Positions 27,348-64,000 of a stretch of DNA of 64,000 nt are shown piece by piece. How positions within the stretch are numbered: position 1 is the stretch's first letter; every line of letters begins with the position of its first letter. The notes below the pieces were generated by a model. That model was not told the DNA's origin. It did not search any database and was given only the letters and a program-made list of their open reading frames with translations. Source of the DNA: Lingula anatina (lineage: Eukaryota > Animalia > Brachiopoda); assembly GCA_051362555.1 (NCBI GenBank), contig CM120640.1, positions 12,462,001 to 12,526,000 of the forward strand, read 5' to 3'. The position numbers were made by a program, and so were the translations under genes.

Positions 27348-27783
27348 ATGCATCCAGTTGTACCTCAAGCAAAGAGACCCAATGGTTTTAGCATAGACTC
27401 CTTGATGGGAAAGGAGGCGAGAGCCGCACACACGCCTACATCGTCCAGCGAGGCCGTCCTGTCAAACAGAGACGGCCTAGGACTCGGCAGCAGCTTTCAT
27501 CCCGTAACGTCATCCAGCACTTTACTCGGAATGAAAGGATTGTATGATCCCCAGGCCTTCCTCGCAGAGGCAGGGTTTGGATTAGGACATTTTGGAATGG
27601 CTAGCCACCCGGCGTTCGCGGGGGCTCTTCACCACGCGGCAGTGGCTGCAGCTGCCCTCCCCGCACACGCCTCTCCGGCCCCGCTTCACCCAATGCTCCT
27701 TGGCAATCCACAGCGAGAACCGTTCCCTTTCTATCCTTGGCTGATGTCTAGGCATGGCGGATATCTGGCACACAGATTTGCAG
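27348..27783 (+). CDS. Emx: Emx (empty spiracles) homeobox protein, exon 1
   Basis: MHPVVPQAKRPNGFSIDSLM (eh1 motif), Ala/His-rich stretch, FYPWL hexapeptide-like motif, HRF; phase-1 donor GCAG|GTGGGT. Confidence 0.92.
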
Positions 27784-30187: not shown

Positions 30188-30357
30188 GTCCCGAGACAAG
30201 TTTACTACTTCAGCCCTTCCGCAAACCAAAGCGAATCCGGACAGCGTTTTCCCCGTCACAGCTTCTGCGACTTGAGCATGCTTTTGAAAAGAACCATTAC
30301 GTGGTGGGACAGGAGAGGAAAGAGCTGGCAGCTAGCCTAAATCTATCAGAAACACAG
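30188..30357 (+). CDS. Emx: Emx exon 2 (homeodomain helices 1-2)
   Basis: TTTTAG acceptor in phase 1; [48 protein letters not shown] is diagnostic of Emx; donor CAG|GTAAGT in phase 0. Confidence 0.97.
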
Positions 30358-33300: not shown

Positions 33301-34634
33301 GTCTCCCATTAGCGTGTTGCGGCAGGAGTGTCGGTTACTTGCATTGACCGAATGACTTTTGTTTCAATCAACGGCAGATATTGAGATGACTTTGTTGATT
33401 CAATAACTGACAGACTGAGAAAAAAATGCAATGAACCACACGAACAACAAATTTATTCTGTACAAATCGGGACGTTTGAATTTTACGACAAACGGGTAAA
33501 TAAAACTCACATCAAAGTGATTTTATTTTTTTTCTTGGCATCAAAGGCAATTATTGCCGTTATATGAAGCTTAATAATACATATAGCAAACATACAGTGA
33601 GGGTACGACAAAATGTGTCCTAATTACTGAATAAAAAAGTGGTATTTAGCTGGCTCAGCAAGCCTGCATGCGTGCTGTTGCAACTGAATATTAGAAAACA
33701 TTCTACCGAACAGCATGGAATACGACAAATTAAAGCCACTGTTTTCAATCTTTTAAATTAAGATCTTACATTAAATATTTTAGTATAGTTTTCATTTTAA
33801 CCTGCCTTCCATTAAATGTTTCCGTTAAACGAAATCTTTTTGAATGAAAAATTAAAATAATGATGAGGCCTTACCTTTGCTATTGCCGTGTATTCAGTCT
33901 GCAAAGTCATGGTTTGGTATTTGCTGGGAAAGGAACGAAAAAAGGCAGAAATAAAAAAAGTTTTTTACCCATGATATGAAAACACAACCAAAAAACAAGC
34001 ATGGTGCATGTATTTGCGTTGAAATAGGGTTTGCTTTTTTTTTCTCACAGTAAGGAGACCGAATAAAACAAAGTGCCGCACGGTACATAGCCGCAGAGGC
34101 TTCACACGCCATTAGACTCGTCATTATGCAACTTCAAAAGAGAAACTCCGAATATTCCTCTTTCATCTGCTCCTTCATTACACCGTAATTTCAGTTTTAT
34201 GTCAATTAATACGCACCTGACATCTACTACTGAGGCTTGAGGCCAGGTAGTTTGATACCTTTAGTTATTTGGGACAACTTCCGAAGTTGTCTTGAATTCC
34301 TGTCCATTGTTTTTTAGCTTGTAATTGTCTTTCAGTGGAGTTGAACAATTCATTAATAGCCTGCGATCGAGATGAAGGGCATAGAGTTTTCAAAACTATT
34401 ATAGGCAATTAACCACGCGCCATTCTTGTTGTAAATCCTTACATTACATTTTTCTTTTTCATGATCCTGTCAGAATATTTAAATGTTTGAAATAAAAAAT
34501 GTGATATTTCTTATCTTATCTTTATTGTTAGGCTAGTCGTTAGTGTACATTATTTTACGAACAAACAAAGTTTGGGATAAATAATGATAGTTATTTGAAC
34601 TTGTATTAAGAGGGCCATTATTTTTTTCCTCTAG

Positions 34635-35012
34635 GTCAAAGTGTGGTTCCAGAACAGGCGCACAAAGTACAAACGTATGAAGGCGGAAGAAGGTGACACC
34701 GCCCCGTCTCCAGGCAAACCCCCTGGTGCTTCGGACGACGAAGATGAAGAGGAGGAAGAAGAGGAGGAGGAAGAGGACGGTGATGAGGAACATATTCTCC
34801 ATCAACAACAATTACAACAGCTACAGCAGCACCAGCAACGCACACTGGAACACAAAGCTAAAGCTAACCATGACACTCATAAAGACTTTAATGCCAAAAG
34901 ACCGAGCACAGACGACGATCGGCCGTCATCTCCCACCAAAAAACAAAAGATTTCACATGAACACCATCTGAATAAATGGAAAGCTGAGACGAATCAACTG
35001 AAAACTGTATGA
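34635..35012 (+). CDS. Emx: Emx exon 3 (helix 3 and C-terminus)
   Basis: TTTTTTTCCTCTAG acceptor; VKVWFQNRRTKYKR, acidic run, poly-Q/H, HHLNKWK motif, TGA. The joined CDS is 984 nt (327 aa). Confidence 0.96.
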   Translation, partial: VKVWFQNRRTKYKRMKAEEGDTAPSPGKPPGASDDEDEEEEEEEEEEDGDEEHILHQQQLQQLQQHQQRTLEHKAKANHDTHKDFNAKRPSTDDDRPSSPTKKQKISHEHHLNKWKAETNQLKTV

Positions 35013-43088: not shown

Positions 43089-44015
43089 TTAAAATTGACT
43101 TTCAAATCTTTCTATCCTTTCCATCATCTCTAGAGCACGCACACGCTGATTCAACTTTTCCACAACTTCGCCCATCGTTGGACGCTCGCGAGGGACCGCT
43201 GCCAGACAACCTTCCATCAGGTTGGTGACACCGAGAAGCTTTCCCAGCTTAGCACATTTCAGGATGAACCCGAAACTGTAAACGTCTGACTTGGTAGAAA
43301 ACTTCTGTCCCTCCCATATTTCTGGACCGTGTTGCGGAAATCGACGCTTGTACAGTTGCCTCAGACGGGGAATTACATAATACCTGTAAGCATGTTGGGA
43401 GTTAGAAAAGCTCACTTTTCCAACGTCCACAAGATACACATCTGGATCTTGCTGAATTGCACCGGTGAGAACTATGTTCTTAAGATGCAAATCATTGAAG
43501 CACAGTCCCAGTTTGTGCAGTTTAGCTAATTTAACTGCTAGTTTTTGCATCAATCTGGCCCAGTGGAGCATGTTGCGCACGTTCACAGGTTGTCTTCGTG
43601 AAGCTGTGATAGCGGAATAGAGAGTGATGGTTCTCTGCTTCATTGTGTCCCCTACAAACTGAACCACCGCACCTACATTCAGGTGTCCTCTCATCCATCC
43701 AAACCTTACATTGCTTAAGTCCACGAGCCCAAAGAATTTCGGCACTATTCCAGTTTCACTGAGAGCTGCCAGTATGCGTGTCTCCCTTACGGCGCATTCG
43801 AACTCTGTTGCCTTCTTGAATACCTTTATCGCCACAAGTGAACCGGATGTGTTTTCTTTTCCCAGAAACACCTTCCCAAACCTGCCTTCCCCCAGCAGGA
43901 GGCGCGTCGAGAAGAAGCCCCGTCGTAAAAAGTCGAGGCATGTCAACGGAAGAAACTTTGGAACATCTTCCACAACAAGACTGCGAGAGTCTCTTTCGTC
44001 TTTGATGGGAATGCT
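43089..44015 (-). CDS. Divergent Ser/Thr-type protein kinase, kinase-domain exon
   Basis: LGEGRFGKV glycine loop, VAIK, FNDLHLKN catalytic loop, DVG, GPE, SDVYSFG, ERP. No in-frame ATG precedes the domain, so it must be spliced. Acceptor ATACAG| at 44016 (phase 0), with an alternative TTACAG| at 44036 (phase 1). Confidence 0.85.
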   Translation of the reverse strand, partial: SIPIKDERDSRSLVVEDVPKFLPLTCLDFLRRGFFSTRLLLGEGRFGKVFLGKENTSGSLVAIKVFKKATEFECAVRETRILAALSETGIVPKFFGLVDLSNVRFGWMRGHLNVGAVVQFVGDTMKQRTITLYSAITASRRQPVNVRNMLHWARLMQKLAVKLAKLHKLGLCFNDLHLKNIVLTGAIQQDPDVYLVDVGKVSFSNSQHAYRYYVIPRLRQLYKRRFPQHGPEIWEGQKFSTKSDVYSFGFILKCAKLGKLLGVTNLMEGCLAAVPRERPTMGEVVEKLNQRVRALEMMERIERFESQF

Positions 44016-44306
44016 CTGTATTTGAGACACCAAATCTGTAATCACAATGCATACTTATCAGTAAAGGCGCAACATTACCACAAAACCTAGTAAATGTTTG
44101 TTGTGTTTGCGCGTTTGGGAGGTTGGGGGGGGGGTAAATTTGGTCCCTCTTTTTCCAACTTAAATCGTTTCATATTTCCATAAGCTTGTTGACAGATGAG
44201 TATTTGTACTTGAGAAATACTGCGTTTTTCATATATGTGCATGCGTTCGTGCGTGTATTTTATATAACACATATATGGTCTTAACTATAAGCTTGTTTCA
44301 ACTTAC

Positions 44307-47859: not shown

Positions 47860-48064
47860 TAAGGACGTGAGCCTACGCACATACGGCCAATAGTGAAAAC
47901 TTAAAGCAAAATTGTTTCATTATCGATTTACCTCAGATGTCATGGCTTTGCTTATCCATATAATCGTAAATATCCATAGAATCTATAAACTGCTTTGGTT
48001 TACTATATATCTGTTTTGTTGAAAAACGAAATTTTCGGTTTCCAGACTACGGTCGTCGTGCAGA

Positions 48065-48080
48065 TTTGTGACGTCACAAA
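48065..48080. promoter_or_regulatory. CRE/ATF 16-bp palindrome TTTGTGACGTCACAAA
   Basis: Perfect palindrome in the CpG-containing region upstream of the TF-like gene. Confidence 0.4.
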
Positions 48081-50107
48081 CTTCGTGAGACATGCACAAC
48101 AGTCTAACGTAACGTCAATAAGAGAATAAATAACGATTGAATTATGAAAGGACGACTAAGAAAAGATGCATATTTCCATAAATCAAATAAAAAGGTGTAA
48201 GAAGAATTCTACAATACCTCATGATTTTCAAGCAATGCTTTTCAAGAGTCATTATTAGATAGCTTGTTTAAATCATATAATCATTTTCAATCACAAATCT
48301 CTTTTTGTTTTGACGCAAAAAAAATTAATCAGTCTCATGATTAGAGGAAGCTGATTTTGCACAAATATTTTGCCCGAGAGCTTTCATTAAAAATTTAACC
48401 ATGATCAGGTCTGTAACACAATGCCTATATTTCATTTACAACGCTCACTGAGTACACCTACATGTAGTTACAGTTGGGACGGATGGCCCGGCCGGGGAGA
48501 CGTCAATCCTGGACCTATATTCGAGAAAATCGTCATTTTTTCAATTATGGGTTATTTAGAAATAATAATTATTATTATTATGTTTTGATCAATGTTGGTA
48601 ATAATTTTATGATTTGCTAGTAAGTCATTCCATTTTGAACTTTTCTGATTTAAGTATAAATTGCATATTTGATTATTTTTGAATAGTTTTAAAAACTTCA
48701 TGTTACGACAGGCCTATTGTTCAGTTTTCCTTTTCAACATTAAGAAGTGCTACAGTCATTTCTGGTCCTTATTTCCCCAGTTCTAAGTACTTTTAATTGA
48801 ATGTGCTTCTTTCTAAAGAACAACAACTTATGCAGGAAGTGGCTCTACAACAACTTGGAAAATCAACTCGTGTTGTTTAGGTGGCTTGTCTTGGTTCTTT
48901 GTTTAGCATCGAAAGCTAGTATTTTGGTTGGTGTCCTACAGCTTTCGTATATTTTCCAAATTCCTTTGTTCTCTCTTAGCTTTTATATGGTTTAAGTGCA
49001 GCATTCACCAGTAATATAAAACGTCATTTTACAGGTAAGAGTTTCTTTTTCATTATGCACTGGAAGACGAGTGCTGAGTCTGTTTGTTTGTGAATTTTCT
49101 GGCATGTATCCTGTCCGCATTTAAAAATGTCCCCAAGTCGTACAGTATTTTCTGTGTCTATACATATCCCCCGAAGCTACTTATCATTCCCAATTTAGAC
49201 CTTTTAAAACGCAGAAACCCCTCAAATGAAAATACCCAATGTCGATATTTTGGTATTTCTGCACCCTATAAGTCTTTGATTTTCAATTTCAGTGTTTCTA
49301 ATTTCTAAATTACTCTGTATATTCTGTGGTGAATTAGAGCAATGTCTCCGCCATTTAAATAAAATAGTTTCGCAATTCATATACTAATTTTTTCAAAAAG
49401 CTTTTGTCAAAAACTTCATGCCCATTCAAATATTATGAGAGCTTCTAAAGGCTATTGCAAGGATGAATATTTGCTGTAATCCCATTATTCAGATAGCACT
49501 AAACGTTATTGTAAAAATATCAGAAAATTAGTAAGCATATTCTTATATTAATTCCAGTATTATGGGAATTATTTGCAAATAAATTTTTAATTAAAATGGT
49601 AGAAAACATGAAAATCCATGTGCAAGAACAAGTCAAGTACTGAATTGTGAAAAGGATAATTTTTTGTTTGTTTGTTTGTTAGGGGAAAGTTCAATTTTGC
49701 AAAAAAATCCAGAACATATACCTTTGATGTATACATTTATGAACAGTAGGGCAGTTTCTTAAAGTAAACAGTATTTTCCTCAGCTCTGTGCTACTAATAA
49801 TTTGGAAATATTGAAAAGTCCTTTGTCCACACTCTGCCATCACTTCAGGGACTGATTTCTGGATTGCTTGCATTTCAAAACTGTATCAAGATGGTTGACA
49901 GATGGCAAGCTTTGTCAGATGGTGAAAAATGAGATTGTTTTTGGCAACATAAATTTATGTCATTTAGAAATTAAAAATGATAAAAAAGTATTACCAAGAA
50001 TGAGTCCCTTATCTCTTATGCTTTAACCTCTTACCAGTTGCTTTCATAGCACATGCCCAAACTACAATACACATTTTTATTTAAGATTGGGAAAGAGTGG
50101 CATCAGA

Positions 50108-50216
50108 ATGTTGAAGATCTCTAGATTTGATCTAAAGTTGCCTGCAGAGCTTGTCCAGACTTGTGCTGCTCTGCGAGAAAGAGAGCTTGCCAAGTTTATA
50201 GCAACCAATAATGAAG
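50108..50216 (+). CDS. Multi-isoform TF-like gene, shared coding exon 1
   Basis: MLKISRFDLKLPAELVQTCAALRERELAKFIATNNE; donor AAG|GTAAAT in phase 1, matching the next exon. A probable 5'UTR donor CAG|GTAAGA lies at 49034/49035. Confidence 0.75.
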
Positions 50217-50572
50217 GTAAATAATTTAGTAAGCTTATTTTTATTTTTATTATTATTCCAAACTACTTCTACTAAAAACCTTTGCAGTTATCAATTTTTG
50301 TAAATGCTTTTAAGTTCAAGGATGTCTTTTATTACTGAAAAAATTTCATTATAAGTAGTTTAACGCCAAACAAAGTTTTTTTAATGGACCATAGGTTAAT
50401 TGGTTGAAAATTTTGACATCATTGCCTGTTGAAACTGTTCCTCTTCTTTCTTTTCTCTTTGGAGTATCTGGACAAAATTTCATACAAGAATGAAGTTTTT
50501 GTGTAATGACATTTCTTCATAATAAGTTGTTTTTTATAATGCTTATATCAAGCTATGATAATGTTGTTTCAG

Positions 50573-51297
50573 GTGAATTCCAGCATACCATAGAAGTGAA
50601 GAGTGAAAAGGAGCACTTTGTTAACTTTGAACTATCCAATTTGGAGATAACATTTAAAGATGGCAGATTTGTGGCCCAGATTGCCCAGGTTCTTAAAGTC
50701 TTTCAGGCGCCAGAACAGGAATCTCAGCAGCAACAGCCTGCACCATCACAACAACAGCCGAGTAATGTTGGAACAGTAACCTCACGTGGTAGTTTTGAAA
50801 AACAATCGCCAAATGTCACTCATTCAAATGAGAGACTTGTGACTCCAACATCTGGTCCAGATGCCGTGAACTTGTTCAGAAACACACAGTATAGAAATTC
50901 AAAGGAAATCTCAGCATCTCAAAATGTTTCTCAGACTACCAGCGTGCAACCAAGACAGCTGCCAAATACAGGTGTCAACTCAAACACAGCTGAAGAAGAG
51001 GATGATGACATAATTGTAGTGAAAGATGAAGATATGATATCAAGGAGGTCGAAAAATGTAGCTGAAGTCACAATTGAGCCCTCTGTTGCAGGAGAGCCCA
51101 GCTCCTCTCAGCCTTCGCAGATATACCCTTATAGCTTATCACAAGTGCATTTGAATGCACCATCCACCATCACAAGTATGTCAAACACAGAACAGTTAGT
51201 TCAACCTTCAACTTCTCAAGTGGGTTCTAACGTGCCACCTCCCCCAACCACACCAGGGCAAATGTTTCTTCACAGAAAGATGGCAAGGATGCAGCAG
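50573..51297 (+). CDS. Multi-isoform TF-like gene, shared coding exon 2 (end of N-terminal domain plus Q/S/P-rich linker)
   Basis: TTTCAG acceptor in phase 1; long open frame (ORF 50506-51333); strong phase-0 donor CAG|GTAAGA. Confidence 0.85.
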
Positions 51298-51332
51298 GTA
51301 AGAGTTATCATTTGTATTTTAGTTATATTTTG

Positions 51333-51358
51333 ACAGGGTTCGACATAAAACTTTTGAT
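51333..51358 (+). promoter_or_regulatory. Stem I, 5' arm (long-range intronic RNA pairing with 52961-52987)
   Basis: ACAGGGTTCGACATAAAACTTTTGAT pairs at all 26 positions (3 G:U, one bulge on the partner) with GTCAAAAGTTTTGATGTCGAGCCTTGT. Confidence 0.75.
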
Positions 51359-52033
51359 TGTTCATTGAGTGAGAATATATTTCATAATAGTAAATGATGA
51401 TATTTCAGGAATATTTGAAGTTATAAAGGAATAATGTGGTAAATGGAAAAGGTGTACATGAACGAGTTGGCCTTTCTTCCACACTATAAGGTGCCAAGTT
51501 AGTCATTCAAACCTGTTACTGTGTAGTTGTAATTTAATTATACAAACAAATTGTTATCCACTACAAGAGCTTGGTAGTGACTCTTTTAAGAGAGATTGAC
51601 TGCTTAAGGTAGAAGATTTTGTCACTGGGGTTTGTTCTTAGCATCCTTTAATGCTGACAATATATGGGCCTAGGCCATAGTTCAGCTCAAGACAAAATCT
51701 TTTTATGAGAGAGTCTCACAGAAATCATCCCCCTTGTGCCTTGCTTCTCCCCGGGCTTTGGATTATGATATTTGACAGTTGTTTCTTCAGAGATAAGACA
51801 TGCTTGAAGTTCTACAGAATTATTCTGAAGCTAGAAATAATAAGTACATATTTACTAGTATATGGCCAACATTTTATTTTTAAAATGGTGTCATTAAAAA
51901 AAAGAAATTTTAAATCTGGCAAAATTAGGATATTAACTGTTGATATACATAACACTAAGATTGTTAACTTAAATGAAAGATCAAAAACTCAGCTCTCATT
52001 ATGAGTAAATTTGCCACTTCACTTCTTTAACAG

Positions 52034-52531
52034 GTACATCATAGTCCTGTCAGGCCTTTAGATTATGCACGAGCAGAGAAGGTTAAGCAGTTGAAAGCCA
52101 AGATTTTAGAAAAGAAAGTCAAACATCATTCAGATATGATGCTAGGTCAGAAGTTCGCCCCCAGGACACTGCAGGGTAGTTCAGCTGGAAGCCCAAGACC
52201 TCTGGTCAATCCTCTTGACCATCTCACTACCAAACACAAGCGCAATTTGAGGTCTTTGTTAACTTATGGGTTACAAGAGCTTAGCGCCTCTTGTGTGGCA
52301 CAGAGACATCTTATGCCACCTATGCAAACACCTGGCTGCAAAAACAAGTACAAGACTGAGTCGGCAGTTGAATATCTGATGAAGGTGTCTGAGCTGGGAT
52401 TTGGTACTGTAGAGACGAGAGGGCGGGTCAAAGTTTTCAAGAAACGTCCCTTTGATGAGCTTAGTCAAAGCAGCAAAGAACTACTTGCTAGAATATTTGT
52501 GGAAGAATCTGCCTATAAGAAAACAAATTGA
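52034..52531 (+). CDS. Alternative terminal exon A: non-zinc-finger module, putative winged-helix-like domain
   Basis: TTTAACAG acceptor in phase 0, open to TGA. The segment ESAVEYLMKVSELGFGTVETRGRVKVFKK has a helix-G-x-G-hairpin pattern; the fold assignment is inference. Confidence 0.75.
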   Translation, partial: VHHSPVRPLDYARAEKVKQLKAKILEKKVKHHSDMMLGQKFAPRTLQGSSAGSPRPLVNPLDHLTTKHKRNLRSLLTYGLQELSASCVAQRHLMPPMQTPGCKNKYKTESAVEYLMKVSELGFGTVETRGRVKVFKKRPFDELSQSSKELLARIFVEESAYKKTN

Positions 52532-52960
52532 CTGATATGAAGGGAAGGGCTTTCTTCTGTATAGTGTTAAGCACATTATAGAATAGGCTAGACACTTTTT
52601 TTAGTGGGATTTATCTCATTTATTGGAAAGACTGAATACCTTTAATTTTAAAAAAAACTTTATATTTTTTAAATAATGATTTTTAAAACTAAATGTTAAA
52701 ACATATTATTTTTTGTTTTTCCCATAAAGTTTTATATTTCTATTTGCTTTTTTAGTAAAAATTGAGCAATGGTTAGGGGTATACGCATACAACTGAATGT
52801 TAAATAATGATTTTATATTCAAGTAATTCATTTCTTGTTGAGCAAAAGAAGACATCCAAAATGAAATTGCTGTTCAGATACTTTTGGGAGACAAAAAGAA
52901 AAAGGTGGACAAAGTAAAACAGTGTAAAAATTTTGTCATTGCCATCTGTAAAAACTGACT

Positions 52961-52987
52961 GTCAAAAGTTTTGATGTCGAGCCTTGT
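52961..52987 (+). promoter_or_regulatory. Stem I, 3' arm
   Basis: Complementary to 51333-51358; lies downstream of terminal exon A. Confidence 0.75.
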
Positions 52988-53470
52988 ATTAGTATGCTTA
53001 TAGTATAGTAAGGTATACAACATTGTTAATTTGTTAAATGTTAGTCTTGTTGTACATCACATAAAGGGATAGCAACTGTTCATTTTGGCCAATTTTCCCA
53101 TGCTTACCAATGGTTAATGAATCCATTTCTACATTCAAAGTTAGTCAATGTTTTTTTTTTCTAAAAAGTTTGTTTTTTTAGCCATCTATGGAGGTCAAGT
53201 GGTCAGATGGCAAGCACAGATTTCAGGTTTATTGCTAAAACTGCCATTTTTGTGGTAAAATAGAATATGTTATATTTCTATGAGTTGTTTACGATGTGTT
53301 TATTTTGAAATATAGATTTCATACGAGGAGTTGTTATCCCTTTATGTTAATATACTAGTATCTCAAGGGGGACAATTTTATTAAATTATTATTTTTTAGT
53401 ATATTACCACTAATATACTTACAACTGTATTATATAATGTTTAATATATATTCTATAGTCAGTTCCTTTG

Positions 53471-53497
53471 TTTGCTTTCTTATTCTCACCAGTGTTG
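53471..53497 (+). promoter_or_regulatory. Putative RNA docking site TTTGCTTTCTTATTCTCACCAGTGTTG
   Basis: Its reverse complement CAACACTGGTGAGAATAAGAAAGCAAA is closely matched once upstream of each of ZF modules 2, 3, 4 and 5. Confidence 0.8.
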
Positions 53498-53695
53498 AGT
53501 CCTCCAAAATTTTTGACTGAAAAATGAAAACAGCCTTTCACAGACTGGCCAAGAAGGAAATCCATAGTATTGTGCATACATACATATTTATGACAAAAAA
53601 TGACATGCTTGTGGTAAAAATGGTTTAAGCCTGCATATTTTGTATGGGGGCAAATCTGTTATGACATAGAGCCTTTTCTGTTTTATTTTTTAAAG

Positions 53696-54238
53696 AAAGG
53701 AAGAAACTTAGTTATTTCACCAAGGAGAGTGACAAATACATTGTCAAAACTACAGCGTGTGACGCCAAGTGTTGCAGCAGAGAAAGGAAGGAGTAAATAC
53801 CAGTGTGGCACGTGTGGTAGAACATTTCTACACAGTTTGTCTCTGACAGCTCACCAAAAAGAACATTTGTGTGACAAGGGTAGTTCCAGGCAAGTCCAGT
53901 GCAAGGTGTGCAATCAAAGTTTTACATCTGGAAAAGGACTGACTAAACACTTGAACTTGTACCACAAGGATAGTTTATGCTGTAATGCTTGCAATGCCAC
54001 CTTTACCACACAGGTTAGCTTGCAACGGCATATGCGAGTTGCTCATAAATCTAAAATGTATTCGTGTGAGATCTGCAACAAGAGCTTTGGCTACAAGATT
54101 TCGTTACATAGGCATTTTGAGGCAAAGCATAATTCAAATCCGGCATACATGTGCTCCTTTTGCAACAAATCATTTGCCTCTCCATACATGGTTAAAGCTC
54201 ATATCAAAAGTTTACACAAACTGGATCAGCAGACTTAA
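53696..54238 (+). CDS. Alternative terminal exon ZF1 (5 C2H2 fingers)
   Basis: Polypyrimidine tract and TTTAAAG acceptor in phase 0 (KGRNLVISPRR...); five CxxC...HxxxH/HxxxxH motifs; own stop codon. Confidence 0.88.
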   Translation, partial: KGRNLVISPRRVTNTLSKLQRVTPSVAAEKGRSKYQCGTCGRTFLHSLSLTAHQKEHLCDKGSSRQVQCKVCNQSFTSGKGLTKHLNLYHKDSLCCNACNATFTTQVSLQRHMRVAHKSKMYSCEICNKSFGYKISLHRHFEAKHNSNPAYMCSFCNKSFASPYMVKAHIKSLHKLDQQT

Positions 54239-54414
54239 AATGTGTATCTGGAAAAAGGAGGAACACTGATCATTAATGAAAATATTTATCCATGTAATTA
54301 ATCTGTACACGGTTATTTAACATTCCATTTTATGTTAGGTTTTATAACTCGACAAGATTTGCAAAGAGTTCAATGAAAAAATGAGGGGAGTTTTTCTACA
54401 GGTTAGTGTTCTGG

Positions 54415-54443
54415 CAACCACTCGTGAGAATAAGCAAGGAAAT
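54415..54443 (+). promoter_or_regulatory. Selector 2 (complementary to the docking site)
   Basis: CAACCACTCGTGAGAATAAGCAAGGAAAT, with an exact GTGAGAATAAG core, about 230 nt before the ZF2 acceptor. Confidence 0.7.
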
Positions 54444-54674
54444 GGAGCAAAGCAGTTAACTGAGAAAATTTTAAAACACCTTAAAGAGAGGTGAATGACA
54501 ATGAAACACATCCCTTACTAAAGGAAATATATTTTCATAACATTTTATTTTGTTATATGGGATACTAATGACAAACATGGCATGACATCAGGAACCCGAT
54601 GGGGCAGCTGAATGTGAAGGTTTAAGTCAAGTTGTGAATATTTTGACAAGCACTTTTGCTTTCTTTTCTTCAAG

Positions 54675-55073
54675 AGAACTGTCAGTCACCCCCTGATGAG
54701 GTCCAGGAAGAAACATCTACAGAGAGAAACAAAATCTTCCTGTCAGTACTGTGATATGTCATTTTCAAGTAGTTTTGCACTGAGGGCACACTTACGAGTT
54801 CATAAAGGGAATTTATATGAGTGTCTCCTGTGTAACAAACAGTTTGTGTATAAACAGTCCTTGCTTAGGCATGTAGAACGCAATCACCAAAGCAACCAGG
54901 AATGTGTTTGTTGTATCTGTGGGAATGTGCTGTCTTCTCCAGATGTGATAAAGGATCACATAGAAACAGTCCACAGAAAAGAGGCTGTCAGATGTAATGT
55001 CTGCCAAGTATACTTCACCAGATCAACTTTGAGGATTCATATGGCCATGCAGCACAAAGAATTTTCATCATGA
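54675..55073 (+). CDS. Alternative terminal exon ZF2 (4 C2H2 fingers)
   Basis: TTTTCTTCAAG acceptor in phase 0 (RTVSHPLMRSRKKH...); four fingers; stop codon; ATTAAA at 55080. Confidence 0.88.
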   Translation, partial: RTVSHPLMRSRKKHLQRETKSSCQYCDMSFSSSFALRAHLRVHKGNLYECLLCNKQFVYKQSLLRHVERNHQSNQECVCCICGNVLSSPDVIKDHIETVHRKEAVRCNVCQVYFTRSTLRIHMAMQHKEFSS

Positions 55074-55475
55074 TTTCACATTAAATGCTTAAATGTAAAT
55101 GGTGCATGAGGGTTGAGGTACCAACATGGAACCTTCGAAAATCATGGCCCTATATTTCTTGCTGCTATTTTCTAATGATAGTTGATGTTGTTGACAGTAT
55201 ATTGCAGTATGTACCTGAAACAAAAATATATTTACATATTACAAGGTAAGACTTAGAAAAGACATATTACAAGATATCTACTGCTACATTTTGGCAGTGA
55301 GGAACTTAATGTGGTGGAGTGGGCAGCATACAAAGATTTAGTAACTTTTATCTACAGTTTTTTAAGCGTAACTTTGTAATGTAAATAGCTATCAGTGTAG
55401 ATGAACTTTTATCAGCCTGTAGAAAAATTTATATATGTGTTAAAAAAATTCCTCCATGTGGCAAGGTTTCCAAAT

Positions 55476-55503
55476 GACACTGGTGAGAAGATGAAAGAAA
55501 ACA
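55476..55503 (+). promoter_or_regulatory. Selector 3
   Basis: GACACTGGTGAGAAGATGAAAGAAAACA is 24/28 identical to the reverse complement of 53469-53496, about 250 nt before the ZF3 acceptor. Confidence 0.78.
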
Positions 55504-55749
55504 GTAAATTAATTTATACAAAATCTTTAAATGAAAAGAAAGTTGTATAGTTTGTGTGTATTAGTTAGCTATATAAAAAAACTGGAAAAGTAATTATCAT
55601 TTCTGAACCAGAAAAATTATTTAAATATATCAAAATGCTCTGGATAGCCAGTTTATAAAATTTGTATAATTATACTCAATGCGGAATCTCCATTATTTTG
55701 CTGGTAGCTTTCTAACACATGAAGACATATTTATTATTCCCTTAACAAG

Positions 55750-56307
55750 GGCAAACATACCCACCCAAAGTTGAGAAGCCCATGGCCTGGAGATTCGCCA
55801 GCACGCATGAGACTTCATGGGATGCACTTTTGTCTGGTGTGTGGAAAGGGGTTCCAAAGTGACATCTTGTTACAGCGTCACAAGAAGATACACAGTGCTG
55901 GAAAGGATTTTGTCTGCACCATCTGCAACAAGGCATTTGTGTACAAGCTATCACTGCAAAGACACACTGACGCCTGTCATAACAGTAACCCTGCGTACAC
56001 ATGCACCATATGCAAAGCTGTCAAATACAGCAAGTGCAACATGCGCCGTCACATTGAAGGAGTCCATAAAATGAAGGCTATCCAATGCCAAGGTTGTCAT
56101 GGCTATTTCACTGAAGATGGATTGAGGGATCATAAATGTAGTGGTGATAAAAATGATAGAAAAAGTTTAACAGGAAACTTGATGGCAGAGAGAGCTGATC
56201 ATTTGACAGGTGAAGGCTTAGTGACTCCAGACGTGATTCATGGCCCTATTATTGTAGACATATCACAGGCCCCTGTGAATGAAAATGTAGATTTACCAAG
56301 TCCTTAG
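55750..56307 (+). CDS. Alternative terminal exon ZF3 (3 C2H2 fingers plus 1 C2HC-like finger)
   Basis: TTCCCTTAACAAG acceptor in phase 0 (GKHTHPKLRSP...); fingers are paralogous to those of ZF1/2/4; own stop codon. Confidence 0.88.
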   Translation, partial: GKHTHPKLRSPWPGDSPARMRLHGMHFCLVCGKGFQSDILLQRHKKIHSAGKDFVCTICNKAFVYKLSLQRHTDACHNSNPAYTCTICKAVKYSKCNMRRHIEGVHKMKAIQCQGCHGYFTEDGLRDHKCSGDKNDRKSLTGNLMAERADHLTGEGLVTPDVIHGPIIVDISQAPVNENVDLPSP

Positions 56308-56723
56308 ACAGAAGAGTCACTTGCTCAACCAATTACTAGATTTGGAGGAATATTGGTAGGCCATAATATAACTGTTCTTTGGGCATTCTCACTTCCTGCC
56401 ATTTTGACAAGAAATAACCCTTTGTGACTAAACATGATAGCTATAAATACAAGTTTAATTAATAACATGCATAGGCCACTTGCCTTCGAATAACTAAATT
56501 TCATGTTAGGGGAGAAAAAATAATTACCTTGAGCTTCAGATTCTCACAATCTTGTCACATGAAAGAGAATTGGCCTGCTTGGAATTTAGACCAGCCCTTT
56601 TTCCTGTATGACAAGAATTTCAGAACAAGGGTTTGTAAAACTGCCTCCAACAATTGAAACCTTGAATTTTTCTAATTTTGTATGTTTTTCTGATAATAAT
56701 TGCAATTGGCAAAGTGATGCATT

Positions 56724-56750
56724 AACACTGGTGAGAATGAATGCAGAAAA
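56724..56750 (+). promoter_or_regulatory. Selector 4
   Basis: AACACTGGTGAGAAT is a 15/15 complement of the docking site, followed by GAATGCAGAAAA; about 125 nt before the ZF4 acceptor. Confidence 0.78.
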
Positions 56751-56873
56751 AAAATCAATTTTCTTTTAAAAGCATGTTTACTTCATATTTTATTACATTA
56801 AAAATAAAAAAGATAAATATTTGTGGAATGGAGCCTTTTTTCTTTCAATCAATTTTCTACATTATTTCATAAG

Positions 56874-57293
56874 GAAAAGAAGAAATTCGCCTTACAGAAA
56901 TATCCTACTGGCAAGAAAACCAGTTTTACCATGTCTTATCTTGGCATGCAATACTCGTGCAAATCCTGTGGAAAGATCTTCCAAAAGCACACTTCTCTGC
57001 TAGAACATATGAAAATACACAAAGGCAAACTACCCACTTGTGACATTTGTAACAAATCTTTTGTGTATAAACAGTCCTTGGAGAGACACATACAAGCATA
57101 CCACAAGAGCAATCCTGCCTATCTGTGCTCCATTTGTGGCACTCTGAAGTTCAGTAAAACTTCTAATCTACGGAGACACATTGAGGCTGTCCATAAGATA
57201 ACACCTATACGATGTGATATCTGTCATGGATACTATACTGAAAGTAGCAAGGTGGAACATGATCTGATACACCTGAAGTTGTTGCAACAGTGA
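56874..57293 (+). CDS. Alternative terminal exon ZF4 (4 C2H2 fingers)
   Basis: TTATTTCATAAG acceptor in phase 0 (EKKKFALQKYP...); four fingers; own stop codon. Confidence 0.88.
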   Translation, partial: EKKKFALQKYPTGKKTSFTMSYLGMQYSCKSCGKIFQKHTSLLEHMKIHKGKLPTCDICNKSFVYKQSLERHIQAYHKSNPAYLCSICGTLKFSKTSNLRRHIEAVHKITPIRCDICHGYYTESSKVEHDLIHLKLLQQ

Positions 57294-57756
57294 AAAAGTG
57301 GATTGCAATTATTGGATATATTAAATGTTGTTTGTTATGTAAATTATATTTATTTACTAGTTTCATCAATAAGGAATTTCATGTCATCCTCCGCCCCCTG
57401 TCCCTACCCAAACCTGTCATGGAGTTATGTTTGTGGGTCTGCTCATGTTAGAAAATTTATATTGTAGTTTTATGGCATCACCATATCTTACAGTTCTGCT
57501 TAGGCTTGGTTAATTCTTATATATTTTGTAGCAAAGAAACATAAATATAAAAGTTCACCAAAACACTTACATGGAATACTTGAAATAAAAGTAAATCTTG
57601 TGTAATATAATAAAAGCATGGACAACATGATACAAGCATGTACAGCAGCTGTTTCTGGTGTGCACAATACTGAACATGGGGAAACATCAGTCTTCGCATG
57701 CTATTTATGTAGAACAAAATTCCATAAGAATGATCAAATTTAAGTTTTATTGAAAT

Positions 57757-57784
57757 ACATTAGGTGAGAATGTGAAAGCAAATA
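57757..57784 (+). promoter_or_regulatory. Selector 5
   Basis: ACATTAGGTGAGAATGTGAAAGCAAATA pairs with the docking site using G:U wobbles, one bulge and one mismatch; about 480 nt before the ZF5a acceptor. Confidence 0.75.
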
Positions 57785-58265
57785 CCTCAATATTTTATCA
57801 TGTATTATGTAGATAGTAGGTTGGTAGATTTTTACACTCTATTTAGATTGTGTATACAGCTCTTACAATGATTATTATAGAAATAAAAATACAATATAAT
57901 CTGAAATTAGACATGTTTTGATTTGCAAACTAAATATCTTGTCACATTATTGGTCTCAAACAAATATTTTCCTTTTGTTTCACAGCTATTCATATATTAA
58001 CAGCTTAAAGCTTTTTACAGGCTCTCATTTTGTTTGATTAGTTTATTCTAAATAGACTTCAACAAAAGTATCCTCTATTTATGATAAATTGCTTATTTTG
58101 ACAGGCCTAAAATATGATTGTCTCTAACAGCTCCATCTGCCAGTTAATCTTTTATTAGAATTGAGGGAAGAAAAGGCATTACTTTCACACGGTAATGCTT
58201 TTTTGTCTGAAATATAATACGTTTGAGAGAAATTTGAAATTTATGTTGTGTAATATTTCCTAAAG

Positions 58266-58321
58266 GGACATCGAGGCCAGCCAACCCAGTTATGGCGTTC
58301 ACAGACTTCAGGCAATGGAAT
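58266..58321 (+). CDS. Alternative terminal module ZF5, exon a (56 nt)
   Basis: TTTCCTAAAG acceptor in phase 0; GHRGQPTQLWRSQTSGNG; GTAAGT donor in phase 2, exactly matching the phase of exon b. Confidence 0.72.
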
Positions 58322-58503
58322 GTAAGTACTCAAAATTGCATAAAGATGACAAAAACAGCTTTAGAAATTAGTTCATGACTTAAGCATTGGCAGTTTATTA
58401 CTTGTTTTAACTGACATTTGGTTAGCTTGATTAGCAGATTCTGTTGTTGTAAAAATCAAAATACAGTCTACAAAATGGTTTGAATTTGACTTGTCATGTT
58501 TAG

Positions 58504-59134
58504 GACCTCTGGGACCAGGAGATATATTGCTGAAAAACATGCATTGCCAAATGTCTCCAATGTTGCTGCTGTAAAGGAAAGCAGAGGATTGCCTTACAAA
58601 ATGGGTCAAAAACCTGTTACCGAGAATACTCTGTCAGGGGTCAATAGGAGTCAGTTTTTGTGCACCAAATGTGGTCAAAGTTACAAGACGGTGAAAGATC
58701 TACAGCAACACCAAGCGCAGTGCACACAGTTGTGGTCCCCGAGTTCAAAGAAAAATTTCAACTGCAATGTTTGTGGGAAACAATTTCCAGGAATGCAGAA
58801 CTTGAGACAACATCTTTTGAAGCATAAAACTCCCAAGTGTATTTGTCAGCTGTGTGGCAGGGCTTTCAAATGGAAAGGGTCACTTAAAAGACATATGCAC
58901 ACATGTCAAAGAGCACAAAAAGTGCCAGGATTTGTCCCAGTTATTAGAACATTTTCACTATCAGACCCTTCAAACACGACTGTTTCTGGATTGGAAACTT
59001 CAAATGTAACACTTTCAAGGCCCACACCTTTGGGATTACCAAGACCAGGGGTTAAAAGTTCAGATCTGACTGAAGAGAAGTCTGCCAACACTGCAGACCA
59101 CTCAGTCAATCCTAATCCTTGTTATTTAACATGA
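58504..59134 (+). CDS. Alternative terminal module ZF5, exon b (3 fingers: C2HC, C2H2, C2HC)
   Basis: GTTTAG acceptor in phase 2; FLCTKC..HQAQC, FNCNVC..HLLKH, CQLC..HMHTC; S/T-rich tail; stop codon. Confidence 0.85.
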
Positions 59135-60163
59135 ATTGACCCAACTTACCCTTACCAAATGGATATTGCAGAAAAAAATCTCGAAAGATTACTTTGTGGC
59201 TCTAAAATTGAGCCAATAGCCTTGAAGAATTTTTGAATTAATGTTTGTGAATAGAAACTAGTCCTTGTATTTGTTGTGGCATGGATGGGATGCCTCTCTG
59301 TATTGTAAAGATGAATTTCCATTTGTTTTCTCCAAATATTCTATCAACTCTCCAGTGATCATCCCATTTTATCTAAAATGTTAATTTATTTTTCTTATTA
59401 TTATAAGTTTAATTTCATCATACAATTTTACACATTTATACTAGCATGCATTTCTTAATGGCTTAAGTGATGTATATTATAGCTACAACAAAACAACACT
59501 AATGAAAGATATACAAAATAATTTTTATTGACATTTTGTAAACTTTGTATTCAGTTTACAGAATTTGCTCCAGCGTTTAAACTCCTTAATAAGAAGTTAT
59601 TATGTGAAATTATACAATACAACAAAAGTACATATCATTTGTTAAAGCTTGGATATTGCTGAATTTCATAAGCTTTTCAATCTAGAAAAATAAAACAAAA
59701 CACTTGATTTTGCCATTAAGAATTACATTTAGAAAAGCATCTCATTGTCAATTTATAGACAGTTTAAGTATACTCATAAAGATGGAGAAATGAATGTTTA
59801 GTATCATTGTTTCCAATTATGCTACCTTGCATACAATACCAGAAATGTCTGGAAACACTAGCCAATTTGTTCAACATCGACATTTTCCAAAATCATCACA
59901 GTGGCTGTGTGTAACACACAGATCCATTCTCTGTATATTCACAGCAGGGAGGCCAAACCATGTACTTCACATGTTCTAAGCATTCTTGACAATCAACTTC
60001 CTGGTTTTGGGAGCATTTCTATTGTGAATGATAGAAAAACCATAATATTTGTTGATTTTGCTTTAACCCTGGTAATACAATCACTATTGTTGTTTCCCAG
60101 TTCTCTGATCTCTGTTTACAATTTAAATAGTTTCATTTTCCATAGATATTATGAACAATAGAT

Positions 60164-60308
60164 TTAACATTGTAGTCTTTCTAGTTTTGCCTGGACCCCT
60201 TTGAATTCTGCAATAAGAGTCCTCACTGTGGTGTCTCCCCCAACAATGGACTGTAACTCAACCAGGTAGGCCGCCACATTGTCCAGGCAGGTGGTGGTGA
60301 AGGCACGC
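60164..60308 (-). CDS. NUP155: Nucleoporin Nup155, last exon
   Basis: RAFTTTCLDNVAAYLVELQSIVGGDTTVRTLIAEFKGVQAKLERLQC* matches the Nup155 C-terminus. Confidence 0.9.
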
Positions 60309-60630
60309 CTGAAGAAATAAAAATGAATAAAAACTACAACAGAATGTCTTATTATTCAACAAAGAACAAAACATACCTACCTTGAAAACTGCCCTTTTCA
60401 TCTAACTATGACTCAATGATTTTTGCTTGATCAGATTAAAATTCACCTCGTGTGCAATATTTTAGCCATGTTTGTGAATGTGGATGGAATCTGAAAATAT
60501 TACTACACGTGACTGAAAAATGTCACCTGAATGGACTGAAAGTTTGTATTTACAGAAATTTGTAGTCTATATTTTGTCTCAAGTGCAATGCACAGTCCAG
60601 GGTGGAGGAAAACATCCACGCTTCTCTTAC

Positions 60631-60737
60631 CTCTCATATGCTGGCACAGTGTTTGGTGCATCTGTATAGCTTTCCACCAGGCATCGTAGCACAGTCAACA
60701 GATGCAGTGGTTTCCTCATGGCCTGCCAGTAGGGGTC
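60631..60737 (-). CDS. NUP155: Nup155 exon
   Basis: DPYWQAMRKPLHLLTVLRCLVESYTDAPNTVPAYER; GT-AG boundaries with consistent phases. Confidence 0.9.
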
Positions 60738-61010
60738 CTTAAAAGGTCAATGAAATTAATTTCTGTATCAAAGCTCTATCTCTAGAGGAAGTCATATAAC
60801 AAGAAGAATTCCAGAAACTTAAAGGATTAGTATATATAAGATTTGATCATATGAAAAACATCATTTACCTCACAATAACACATGAAGTTTGTAAGATTTG
60901 AATGCATTTCATAAATCAAATGCTAACCTGGTAATATATATATATACATAATATCTCAATAACTGCAGCATTTTACAGAGTACAGTGTGGAAATCTGTTT
61001 TATATCTTAC

Positions 61011-61147
61011 TTTTGACTTGAAGAGTCGGTCATAAACCTCTTGCAGCTTTGGCATGGACACACCTATCTGCTGTAAGGTGGTAAACACCCACTTGGAGTC
61101 AAAGCTATACTCGCAGCTCTTCTTCTCCAAATATTTCACCAGGAAAG
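61011..61147 (-). CDS. NUP155: Nup155 exon
   Basis: FLVKYLEKKSCEYSFDSKWVFTTLQQIGVSMPKLQEVYDRLFKSK; canonical splice sites. Confidence 0.9.
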
Positions 61148-61342
61148 CTGTACAAAAAAACAATTACAGAAAAAGTTTACTGCCACTTTCAAAAGGAGGA
61201 TTCTTCAAAAATGTCTTAATTTTATTACACTGCTTCGTCAATTTAATTATTATTATTATTATTATTATTAAACCACAATCAAAATGTCAAAATAAACATT
61301 GTGGACATGAATATAGCAGCAATATGTTATAAACAGCCATAC

Positions 61343-61453
61343 CTAATGGAAAGTATCTTTCTGTTGCACCATACAACTTTCCAAGTATCACCAATTTCTT
61401 GCTTATAGTGGCCATGCGTGTCTGAGGCGCAGACGCCAGACTGTGTTCAAATT
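61343..61453 (-). CDS. NUP155: Nup155 exon
   Basis: ...ISKKLVILGKLYGATERYFPL; canonical splice sites. Confidence 0.88.
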
Positions 61454-61633
61454 CTGAAAAAAAAAAAAAAAGTATATGAATGTAGGTAACTCTAATACCA
61501 AATCAGGTTTCTTAATATTTTTCACTATCTCACAATTTCTCGATTAAAAAAGAAAATGGACTTGACATAACATTCAACACACCCACTTCAATTTAATTAA
61601 GGAGATACGTCCTGTCCTATTGTATAACTCTAC

Positions 61634-61754
61634 CTTTATCCACAATGTCCTGCCACAGGGACTCCACCAGTGTTGGGTCATAATGTCCAGCACAATGGAC
61701 AATGGCTAGCTTACACTCAGCCAGACCATATGGCTCTGCAAACTCTCCATAAAG
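61634..61754 (-). CDS. NUP155: Nup155 exon
   Basis: [40 protein letters not shown], a highly conserved Nup155 segment. Confidence 0.93.
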
Positions 61755-61951
61755 CTGGAATAGAAAACAACAGTATTGTTATTGGCTGGGGTTAAAAGGA
61801 ATTAAATATTTTTAATTTGTCAATGAAAAAAAAATGAATCACTACTTTTTGTAAATGGCATCAGACCAAGTTAGAAAAACCCCACTAAAGAAAACAGTAA
61901 CTGTATTGGGCTAGAAGTTATATGCTGCACATATCTGGAGACCATACTCAC

Positions 61952-62189
61952 TGTTGTAATGTCCATGAGTTCAGAGTTCAGCCTGGAGACGCTGTCCTCA
62001 GTGTGATGTGATGGCAACTTGGAAACCATCTCCAACACCTGCAGTTGTATCCTGGCCACCTCCATCTTCTCTTCAAGCTCATGCAAAAACTCGCCCTCAT
62101 TTGCAGAGCTGGTGCGCATGCTGGAGCTCTTAGCACACATGATTGCACGTGACAAGTATTCCAGTCTCTGTGGGAGAGGAATGTCCGTC
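61952..62189 (-). CDS. NUP155: Nup155 exon (gene continues beyond the window end)
   Basis: [15 protein letters not shown]...[19 protein letters not shown]...LNSELMDIT is diagnostic of Nup155. Confidence 0.93.
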
Positions 62190-62310
62190 CTGCAATATAA
62201 AAATGGTGGTTTACGTATAATGGATTTTGTTTTGGTTCTGCTGCTTCAATTTAGTCCAAGAAATTGGTGCAGAAAAAAGGGTGAATTGTGCGTTTTTTAT
62301 CTACAAGCAT

Positions 62311-62872
62311 GAAATTTGCCACAGTTGTAGATAATGAAATTCTAAGCTTTTTTGGATATATGGGCATGTCTGAATATTCCAGTATGTCCTCCAAATCCAA
62401 TATGGCCGCCACAAATACTCTTTTAAATTAAAACATCTAATATATAGTCCTAAAATGGTTTAAAATATCATTTTATAGCTGGAAAATATCATGCTATGAA
62501 TGAATTATCAATATCCGCTTCTACAGGTGTATAGAATTCCAAAATGGCCTCCAAAAGTAAAATAAGCAGTTTAATTACGCAAAATATGCAGCAGTTTTGT
62601 AAAATCATCAAGCACTTACAATTACAAGCATAAAAATTGGCACAGTTATGTAGAACATGATTCTAAGCAACGTTGGATATAGGGGCATGTCTGAAAATTC
62701 CAATATGGCAGCCAATTTCAATATTGCCCCCAAAATACCCTTTCAAGGTGAAAGTTATTTGTATAGTCTTTTATAAAAATATCATTTAATGGTTAGAAAA
62801 TACCATTGTATGTATGAAGTATCAGTATCTGCCACTTAAGGTTTTAAAATTCCAAAATGGCCTCCAAAAGTC
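62311..62872. repeat. Two degenerate ~250-bp copies spaced ~320 bp apart, probably transposon/satellite-derived, in a Nup155 intron
   Basis: Shared blocks TTCTAAGC..TTGGATATA.GGGCATGTCTGAA.ATTCCA, AAAATATCATTT and AATTCCAAAATGGCCTCCAAAAGT occur in both 62311-62560 and 62631-62872. Confidence 0.7.
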
Positions 62873-64000
62873 AGCAGACCACAACTATTGAATTGTAATC
62901 ACTCGTGAATAGGCATGTGGGCTTTGCAAACTACCTGTATAATCAGCATATTCCTACCTGTGCAGGAGCTATTCTACAGAGTTTTTAAAAAACCATCAAG
63001 CATGATACATTTATTATGTACTGAAAACAGTCCTTCTTTTGATAAACCAACATAAGTAGTTTGACTCTTTGCTCTGGATTCTCATTTAGATCAATTCCCA
63101 ATCTTCTTATATGGCACTCATGAGTGACTCCCCCTTTCTAAGAAAAAAAGTATCGTGCAAAATCCATAAAATATGAAAGAAACACCAGAATTACTTAGCC
63201 TTAAAGAGGCAAATATAAAAAACTTCGGGTGTACCAATTTTGTCTGTTGGTTATGATTCTTCAGCTAGATCAGTGCATGGCGCTTCATCAAATGCTCATA
63301 AATATAACAAAAATGACAGCTAATCAAACATACAGGTCTCACAATTTGGTGTTTTTCATTGGTAAAGTACTAAAAAGCGGGGCACATTTGCACTCGATAA
63401 TGTTATGATGTTATCGTGTGCTTCAAAAGTAAATTAGAAAAGCTTCTTATATAAAAAATTGGCTTTAGTACATTCGCAGTAATGGCTACCGAGAATTTAG
63501 TGGAAATTTATGAGCAAAGAAATACCTGTACCCCGTACCCCAAACAGAGGGCAGGTGTTGATACGTGTTGTATCCAAGAGTTGCATTGCAGGCTTCACAC
63601 TTCGTGCACTAAAAAAGAAGCACTGATAGGCGCCAAACTTTGGTTTTCATTTGATCATTTGGCAACTTGTTTAGTTACAAACCTATACTTTCAAAAAACT
63701 GAACATGAAAATAAAAGAATTAAAATCCTCCAGACTGTTAATACATACAAAACTTCAAAAAACGGTGTATTCTGAGCATTACACCAAGAAATTAGTGCAA
63801 TATGGACTTTGAAAGGTAAAAATTCATGAGATTTCCAGCATCATTGTCTCTGTGGGACAATCCAGAATGAAGCCATGAGGAGTATTCACTTACCCAGCTA
63901 ACAAAATCTACCAGGTAGCTCCTACCACATCTGTTTGTAGTTATGTGTGCAGTTGCTATGAGGGGAGTCAGAAGCATTGGAAGAATGGTCCTATAAGGGT

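Follow-up and report, generated by a model that had tools for sequence, protein, structure and literature searches.

In lola- and mod(mdg4)-type genes, a common N-terminus is spliced to many alternative DNA-binding tails. In Drosophila Nmnat, two complementary intronic boxes (box 1 and box 2) lie on either side of the proximal acceptor, the stronger one, of an alternative terminal exon; when the stem between them is broken, distal use is sharply cut and proximal use rises about 1.5-fold, and a compensatory change rescues the effect (PMC2724269). The Nmnat loop is about 350 nt long with one distal acceptor, and the boxes are conserved, with no stated transposon origin (PMC2724269). In Drosophila PGRP-LC, CG42235 and Pip, one docking site and several selectors serve alternative 3' cassettes (PMC6191721). 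The LCR of Dscam1 exon 6 is a multi-subunit structure with an effective distance of less than 200 nt, and the exons concerned are internal (PMC3535345; cf. PMC12962786). In ape TBXT, an inverted AluY and AluSx1 pair with each other in the pre-mRNA and the enclosed exon is skipped, and in mouse Tbxt arbitrary inverted pairs of about 220-300 bp act likewise (PMC10901737). Tandem duplication explains extra selectors, yet it presupposes an existing stem (PMC6071210). For long-range splicing helices, a one-step origin would be given if both ends of an element form the helix around the very exon that it delivered.

The DNA analysed here, referred to as the window, is a stretch of 64,000 nt of Lingula anatina (Brachiopoda), positions 12,462,001-12,526,000 of the forward strand of contig CM120640.1 (GCA_051362555.1). 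It holds a gene in which a single common donor serves six alternative last exons, exon A and ZF1-ZF5 (Table 1). As in Nmnat, complementary intronic boxes, here called the arms of stem I, flank the proximal acceptor of an alternative terminal exon. Unlike in Nmnat, the Lingula loop is 1.6 kb long, a dock/selector array of five exons follows it, and both arms match the terminus of a transposon family; the effect on splicing is predicted only. The docking site with four comparable partners, one for each of ZF2-ZF5, resembles that of PGRP-LC, CG42235 and Pip; in contrast, the stem I arms do not compete, and no separate, non-competing stem removing a first, unrelated cassette is described in the available part of the work on those genes (PMC6191721). 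Like the Dscam1 LCR, stem I lies between the constitutive donor and the docking site and would shorten the path to the chosen exon. However, it is one long-range helix (plus a MITE hairpin) enclosing a coding last exon, with donor-to-ZF acceptor paths of 357-716 nt when folded (2398-6968 nt unfolded); by subunit structure and by distance, it is not a Dscam-type LCR. The TBXT Alu pair is the nearest transposon precedent. In both cases inverted sequences, probably transposon-derived in Lingula as they are in TBXT, lie around an exon, and they are predicted to pair in Lingula RNA. TBXT involves two separate 300-nt retroelements around a host exon; in the Lingula locus, the exon would be a passenger of the element, probably a single DNA transposon, whose two 26-nt ends enclose it. 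What is new here is the recognition that the stem I arms match a transposon terminal inverted repeat with 5-bp target duplications. In addition, the locus places a Dscam-style dock/selector array, together with a lola-like family without BTB, in a brachiopod. A literature search at title and abstract level returned nothing on DNA-transposon ends causing exon skipping, and one at the level of search results, which covered few subscription journals, returned nothing on dock/selector-type pairing in Lingula or other lophotrochozoans, or on the gene family described below.

Six alternative endings behind one donor

Splicing was followed in raw RNA reads from four sequencing runs, the analysis covering 6-25% of every run. 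The common exon matches Lingula anatina RefSeq proteins at 98%. The five RefSeq isoforms have 278 aa in common and differ in their C2H2 zinc-finger tails, which map to the acceptors of ZF1-ZF5 (Table 1). Among the joints listed, the junction into exon A (51297>52034) is carried by 10, 2, 1 and 0 reads across the four runs, and the junction into ZF1 (51297>53696) by 8, 0, 0 and 0. Proximal and distal acceptors are therefore both used, with 13 junction reads in three of four runs for exon A, 8 reads in one of four runs for ZF1, and five ZF isoforms in RefSeq. No regulation of ending choice was evident among the four RNA runs, read counts being low. A further junction, seen in two runs with 9 and 5 reads, lies upstream (49034 to 50086) and joins an apparently non-coding exon to the first coding one. 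An Rfam search over 48000-60000 gave no matches.

Table 1. Features of the locus, in positions of the 64,000-nt window
Feature	Position	Strand	Basis and remarks
First coding exon part, ATG to donor	50108..50216	+	RNA joints, joined to 50573; RefSeq XP_013406008/10/11
Last common exon	50573..51297	+	Common donor GT at 51298; RNA joints, RefSeq isoforms
Stem I left arm	51333..51358	+	26/26 pairing with right arm; from 51334 matches transposon terminal inverted repeat
Putative old non-autonomous DNA transposon, 1653 bp, carrying exon A	51334..52986		Flanking 5-mers match 3/5
Exon A, coding part, alternative last exon	52034..52531	+	CAG acceptor; junction reads; DUF3987-like
Stem I right arm	52961..52987	+	On minus strand from 52986 matches same terminal repeat, 12/13
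Multicopy MITE	53064..53342		14-bp inverted ends, TA on both sides; strong local hairpin; unrelated to stem I
Docking site	53466..53498	+	Top four partners within 48000-59700 each precede a different one of ZF2-ZF5
ZF1 last exon, C2H2	53696..54238	+	AAG acceptor, without selector; junction 8 reads in one run; RefSeq X3; Pfam
Selector 2	54415..54448	+	Pairs with docking site
ZF2 last exon	54675..55073	+	AAG acceptor; RefSeq X6 (P0049)
Selector 3	55476..55504	+	Pairs with docking site
ZF3 last exon	55750..56307	+	AAG acceptor; RefSeq X2 (P0002)
Selector 4	56719..56751	+	Pairs with docking site
ZF4 last exon	56874..57293	+	AAG acceptor; RefSeq X5 (P0048)
Selector 5	57757..57784	+	Pairs with docking site
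ZF5 ending	58266..59134	+	56-nt exon 58266-58321 (AAG acceptor) plus 58504-59134; RefSeq X1 (P0003)

Exon A stands apart from the other endings. It is the first in order, lies upstream of the dock, lacks a selector and has the only CAG acceptor; the acceptors of all five ZF exons read AAG, as does that of one constitutive intron of the gene, in a comparison made by letters alone. In run X12, exon A contributes about 23% of the summed last-exon depth (7.9/33.8, from depth bins and subject to 3' bias), suggesting that splicing mostly passes over the acceptor that comes first and looks best. Neither AATAAA nor ATTAAA occurs between the exon A stop and 53380. Residues ~57-165 of exon A are similar to the C-terminal part of DUF3987 proteins from animals (42 hits at 53-59% identity, with E values down to 1e-27), and PF13148 is present in 10 of the 14 hits scanned, the long ones; exon A is probably a captured DUF3987-family tail. 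The exon A form was absent from the protein collection searched. Its 443-aa product would sit between X3 (458) and X5 (417), and may occupy the place of RefSeq X4, the single number missing among the isoforms retrieved, if RefSeq numbering follows its usual habit. Paralog tails that resembled exon A by eye gave no real match (best E 0.1).

The first 85 residues define a family whose 21 proteins come from five loci; among the 136 candidates compared, its members occurred in Lingula alone. Alternative tails occur at each of the five loci, and their types include C2H2, zf-C17orf113 and Myb/SANT-like. Besides the present gene there are four further Lingula loci with the 85-aa N-terminal domain (LOC106156073, LOC106170880, LOC106150702 and LOC106157998; P0050-P0065), whose tails are C2H2, zf-C17orf113, Myb/SANT-like and unnamed. 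With a common N-terminus and many alternative tails, the gene and these four loci are like lola and mod(mdg4); unlike them, the family has no BTB domain, and the N-terminal domain gave no Pfam BTB match, the RefSeq name notwithstanding. The 85-aa domain had no match in Pfam, PDB sequences, Atlas or Foldseek, and its fold model is poor (pLDDT 53).

The four dock/selector pairs have energies of -31.7 to -34.4, all within 3 kcal/mol, and the next partner reaches -27.1. Read depth suggests that selector 2 falls inside the 3' UTR of ZF1. Between stem I and the dock lies the MITE, at which read depth runs to hundreds to thousands on both strands, with loose ends at 53344. RNA reads from other MITE copies are heavy, and many copies hold a palindromic segment that is missing here at 53179. 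A hairpin of 53060-53081 with 53325-53346, considered as a second designed helix, was rejected, as it consists of the inverted ends of this multicopy MITE.

Stem I, the helix around exon A

The pairing of 51333-51358 with 52961-52987 was given by a preliminary description of this DNA, and the coordinates, the 26 of 26 paired positions and the single bulge are correct; the duplex energy is -34.0 kcal/mol, against -25.0 kcal/mol for the arms on the opposite strand. The donor GT places the start of the left arm at intron base 36, as had been stated, and the loop does hold exon A with its CAG acceptor, spliced as described above. Three G:U pairs with a bulged G (G52973) make up one valid register of the helix, but not the only one, as ViennaRNA bulges the next A instead and gives four G:U pairs.

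Against dinucleotide shuffles, the best helix between the flanks of exon A was reached in none of 300 shuffles under either of two scoring schemes. Stem I is also the best helix in 50000-60100, with none of 40 shuffles reaching it in each scheme; the margin over this 10-kb null is 59 against a maximum of 52 in one scheme and a narrow 48 against 47 in the strict one. When 30-nt windows are ranked by raw duplex energy, stem I comes third, after looser exonic matches. Paired with the right arm, the extended left arm gives -44.8, whereas no other window does better than -35.1 (6394 windows on both strands, its own complement excluded). The next-best partners of the two arms reach -16.5 and -22.5, compared with -34.9 and -34.5 for stem I, and each arm has one clear partner in the gene. 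After the opening of local structure, the net interaction is -21 to -24 kcal/mol for stem I and -16 to -21 for the dock/selector pairs; in net strength, stem I equals the dock/selector pairs. Stem I is almost certainly a non-chance helix. An outer extension toward the donor was not significant (P 0.045-0.2 over 12 tests), nor was an inner extension. In addition, an interrupted 44-pair helix (50436-50483 with 52861-52911) connects the intron preceding the last common exon with sequence shortly upstream of the right arm; it crosses stem I and is borderline against shuffles.

The folding of the region that the preliminary description had proposed came out in two ways. All 26 stem I pairs are present in the minimum-energy folds of three of three nascent-length transcripts, and again in that of the full region if the dock is constrained as occupied; however, stem I is missing from all four unconstrained full-length folds, and forcing it costs 6.3 kcal/mol. 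In the full-region fold the left arm pairs elsewhere, 51304-51346 with 53492-53531, at probabilities above 0.8. Equilibrium folds of a 2.4-kb RNA are unreliable; therefore more weight was given to the nascent folds, though the full-length absence counts against stem I. The unfolded distance from the donor to exon A is 736 nt, and the right arm is transcribed 953 nt after the exon A acceptor. The donor-to-dock path measures 2168 nt unfolded and, with stem I formed, 234 nt with the MITE folded or 513 nt with it unfolded.

The arms of stem I and a transposon terminus

Read from outside, both stem I arms start with the same 13-mer, and hAT ends begin like it. A motif built from the two arms was used to scan metagenome contigs, giving 65 loci, of which about 40 are estimated as chance, and 53 after duplicate removal. 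An inverted partner of the motif was found 376-1675 bp away at 8 of 24 low-GC loci and at none of 29 high-GC loci, and a looser partner rule adds one element, making nine paired elements. Among these nine, four have perfect 5-bp target duplications and two have 4/5, while the others have 3/5, 1/5 and 0/5 (the chance of 5/5 being ~0.003). In 18 family-like loci picked by hand from the 65, ten positions outside the motif agree in at most 9 of 18, and positions inside and beyond it in up to 18 of 18; conservation begins at the first C and continues past the motif searched. The partners, the duplications and the sharp edge of conservation together indicate that the arm motif is a real transposon terminus. 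The nine elements (L002, L009, L014, L015, L018, L020, L034, L044 and L062) are non-autonomous, 376-1675 bp long, on low-GC metagenome contigs, with ends of 16-17 bp and mostly 5-bp duplications.

In the window, the terminus faces inward at both arms and lies a single pair in from the outer limit of stem I; the left arm end agrees with it at 13 of 13 bases (to a family variant) and the right at 12 of 13. Over the whole 64 kb, the arm ends score highest against the terminus profile (24.7 and 19.6 bits), the next match reaching 10.2; since the motif was built from the arms, this ranking shows only the absence of a third copy in the window, and no other copies of the arms were found there. Because the arms match a terminal inverted repeat, 51334-52986 probably represents an old non-autonomous element with which exon A was brought in, and a transposon origin of the arms is regarded as likely. 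The likeness does not extend throughout. The flanking 5-mers are identical at three of five positions (chance of at least three, 0.155), and an 8-bp target duplication (5/8) was dropped as the family shows 5-bp duplications. Similarity of the window arms to the family beyond the searched motif was not significant (P 0.46 and 0.15), and the family repeat is 16-17 bp long with unlike inner ends, whereas in the window both ends are alike and pair over 25 bp.

The preliminary description had read every substitution in the helix as the mark of selection on RNA and had set this against decay of a DNA inverted repeat or terminal repeats of a multicopy transposon with target duplications. The latter opposition did not survive, as the arms do match a transposon terminal inverted repeat, even though the duplication is incomplete and the window holds no further copy. 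The wobble argument also fails. Only two G:U pairs are internal, both from C-to-T transitions, and neutral decay of an inverted repeat puts C-to-T on the transcribed strand half the time, so that two G:U pairs are expected by chance about once in four. Moreover, intact family ends pair at -31 to -33 kcal/mol in five of the nine elements. An insertion of this kind therefore brings its helix along, and since a fresh transposon yields an equally strong helix without selection, the strength of stem I is no proof of function.

The class of the element can be compared with described transposons. Some hAT ends start with CAGGG (Table 1 of PMC4298943) and hAT5-type DNA transposons make 5-bp target duplications, while the CMCT group has CA..TG ends and 2-5-bp duplications (PMC12730594). 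The arm ends also start with CAGGG and the metagenome family has 5-bp duplications, as in hAT5; unlike hAT5, the window copy has no intact duplication and no transposase was seen in the element or the paired loci. Specifically, no transposase-length frame occurs in either, and the three long frames scanned are not transposases. No DUF3987 piece was found in the 65 metagenome loci, no relative of the gene was found when metagenome contigs were scanned with the common exon, and literature searches for the terminus motif, or for DUF3987 with transposons, gave nothing relevant.

RNA depth at 51546-51939, inside the element, is zero in all four runs. The CpG observed/expected ratio of the element interior is 0.12, compared with 0.22 in introns of the gene, and both arms retain CpG. 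Exon A is covered, and spliced in one read, in X18, a diverged run in which reads over the 3' region of ZF3 show differences at as many as 13 positions. The decayed flanks, the CpG-poor interior beside the retained arm CpGs, and the presence of exon A in X18 may be modest signs of age plus upkeep.

A possible history and its alternatives

Our best reading, by analogy, is that stem I is an Nmnat-type loop-out stem built from exapted transposon ends and predicted to restore the proximity of donor and dock. In the ancestral gene the donor would have lain ~200-230 nt from the docking site. The element would have landed 36 nt into the donor-dock intron, with a DUF3987-family tail and a donor-capturing CAG acceptor, and its ends would pair as soon as transcription has passed the right arm. 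Commitment to exon A at an earlier point, in very roughly a quarter of transcripts, would give the exon A form; the remaining transcripts would fold, and their donor-to-dock path would drop from 2168 nt to about 230-510 nt. Dock/selector pairing would then choose among ZF2-ZF5, with ZF1 as the unpaired default. The position of exon A upstream of the dock and its lack of a selector would fit a later insertion into the donor-dock intron, and it is from position only that the order of ZF array first and exon A later is suggested. Because the right arm appears late and no AATAAA or ATTAAA precedes 53380, a race between commitment and helix formation would set the exon A share. With no rival partner for either arm and the G:U argument weak, stem I looks like a kinetic bypass that sets this share, not a two-partner switch. 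The two-tier choice of the preliminary description, exon A or a ZF exon and then which ZF exon, therefore holds in its topology, as stem I and the dock/selector helices are sequential and mutually compatible and both kinds of exon are used, but not as a switch.

Transposon origin and splicing function are compatible, and the origin does not settle the function. From the sequence, a real splicing effect of stem I is predicted with fair confidence, and for the fuller proposal, that the transposon-end arms pair in RNA, loop out exon A and so let the donor reach the dock and the ZF endings, our confidence is evenly balanced. A more general idea can only be offered tentatively, namely that of a self-skipping exon cassette, in which a transposon with a captured tail inserts between donor and dock and its own terminal repeats form the helix that keeps the older endings usable. 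If true, transposon ends would be a ready-made source of long-range splicing helices, and there would be a route for adding new tails in a brachiopod-specific, non-BTB, lola-like family.

The arms could instead be the neutral leftover ends of the insertion that brought exon A, without any effect on splicing, and the ZF exons could be reached through weak 3'-end processing of exon A and dock/selector pairing. The match to the transposon terminus, the equally good pairing of intact family elements, the loss of stem I from full-length folds and the weak wobble bias all agree with such a relic, and the lack of AATAAA and ATTAAA after the exon A stop means that read-through may be easy anyway. Yet the arms can still pair along all 26 bp and have lost neither CpG, next to flanks and an interior of aged appearance, and some effect would be expected from a helix of this net strength that encloses an exon and is the first to form in the nascent transcript (cf. 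Nmnat and mouse Tbxt); we regard the relic as unlikely, though to be taken seriously. If, on the other hand, stem I had evolved from ordinary intron sequence as a regulated first tier, its likeness to transposon ends would be chance. Stem I is beyond chance as a helix, its paired length exceeds the family repeat, and an intact target duplication, a further copy in the window and similarity past the motif are all missing, as this would predict. What makes it improbable is that both arms open, inward-facing, with the precise end sequence of a transposon family, no more than one pair from where the helix ends on the outside; in addition, there is no rival partner to switch with and, at low counts, no regulation evident in the four runs.

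The full-region fold raises the question of whether the left arm is a first-tier dock with two partners, either the right arm, which would free the dock, or 53492-53531, which overlaps the 3' end of the dock and would be the missing selector of ZF1; the interrupted helix noted above may then clamp the last common exon. The fold itself supports this pairing, an occupied dock flips it to stem I, and ZF1 without a selector would be accounted for. However, 53492-53531 scores -27.9, which makes it only the fifth plus-strand peak of the window, behind chance peaks at -31.1 and -30.4, and it nets only -3.4 to -5.6 kcal/mol. The clamp, whose score none of 300 shuffles reaches in one scheme, is matched by 42 of 300 under strict scoring, and its 51 does not exceed the maximum of the 10-kb null, which is 52. 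The two-partner arrangement is thus quite improbable. The layout of the gene also recalls fly mod(mdg4) and lola, the endings of which are joined by trans-splicing or come from separate transcription units, and the helix would be incidental if the Lingula endings were chosen mainly in that way. Six endings in order on one strand, together with an existing cis dock/selector set, make this extremely improbable.

The neighbourhood of the locus holds several other genes. The 3' part of a Nup155-like gene lies on the minus strand at 60200-63900; the low read depth in the opposite orientation at 57850-59800 may be a Nup155-like 3' UTR overlapping ZF5, and two diverged direct copies of a ~320-bp unit occupy 62302-62871 in an intron of the same gene. 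Upstream, a single open frame of 321 aa on the minus strand (43089-44054) encodes a protein-kinase domain, and 27318-35012 on the plus strand is a homeobox gene (PF00046) which we take to be Emx-like.
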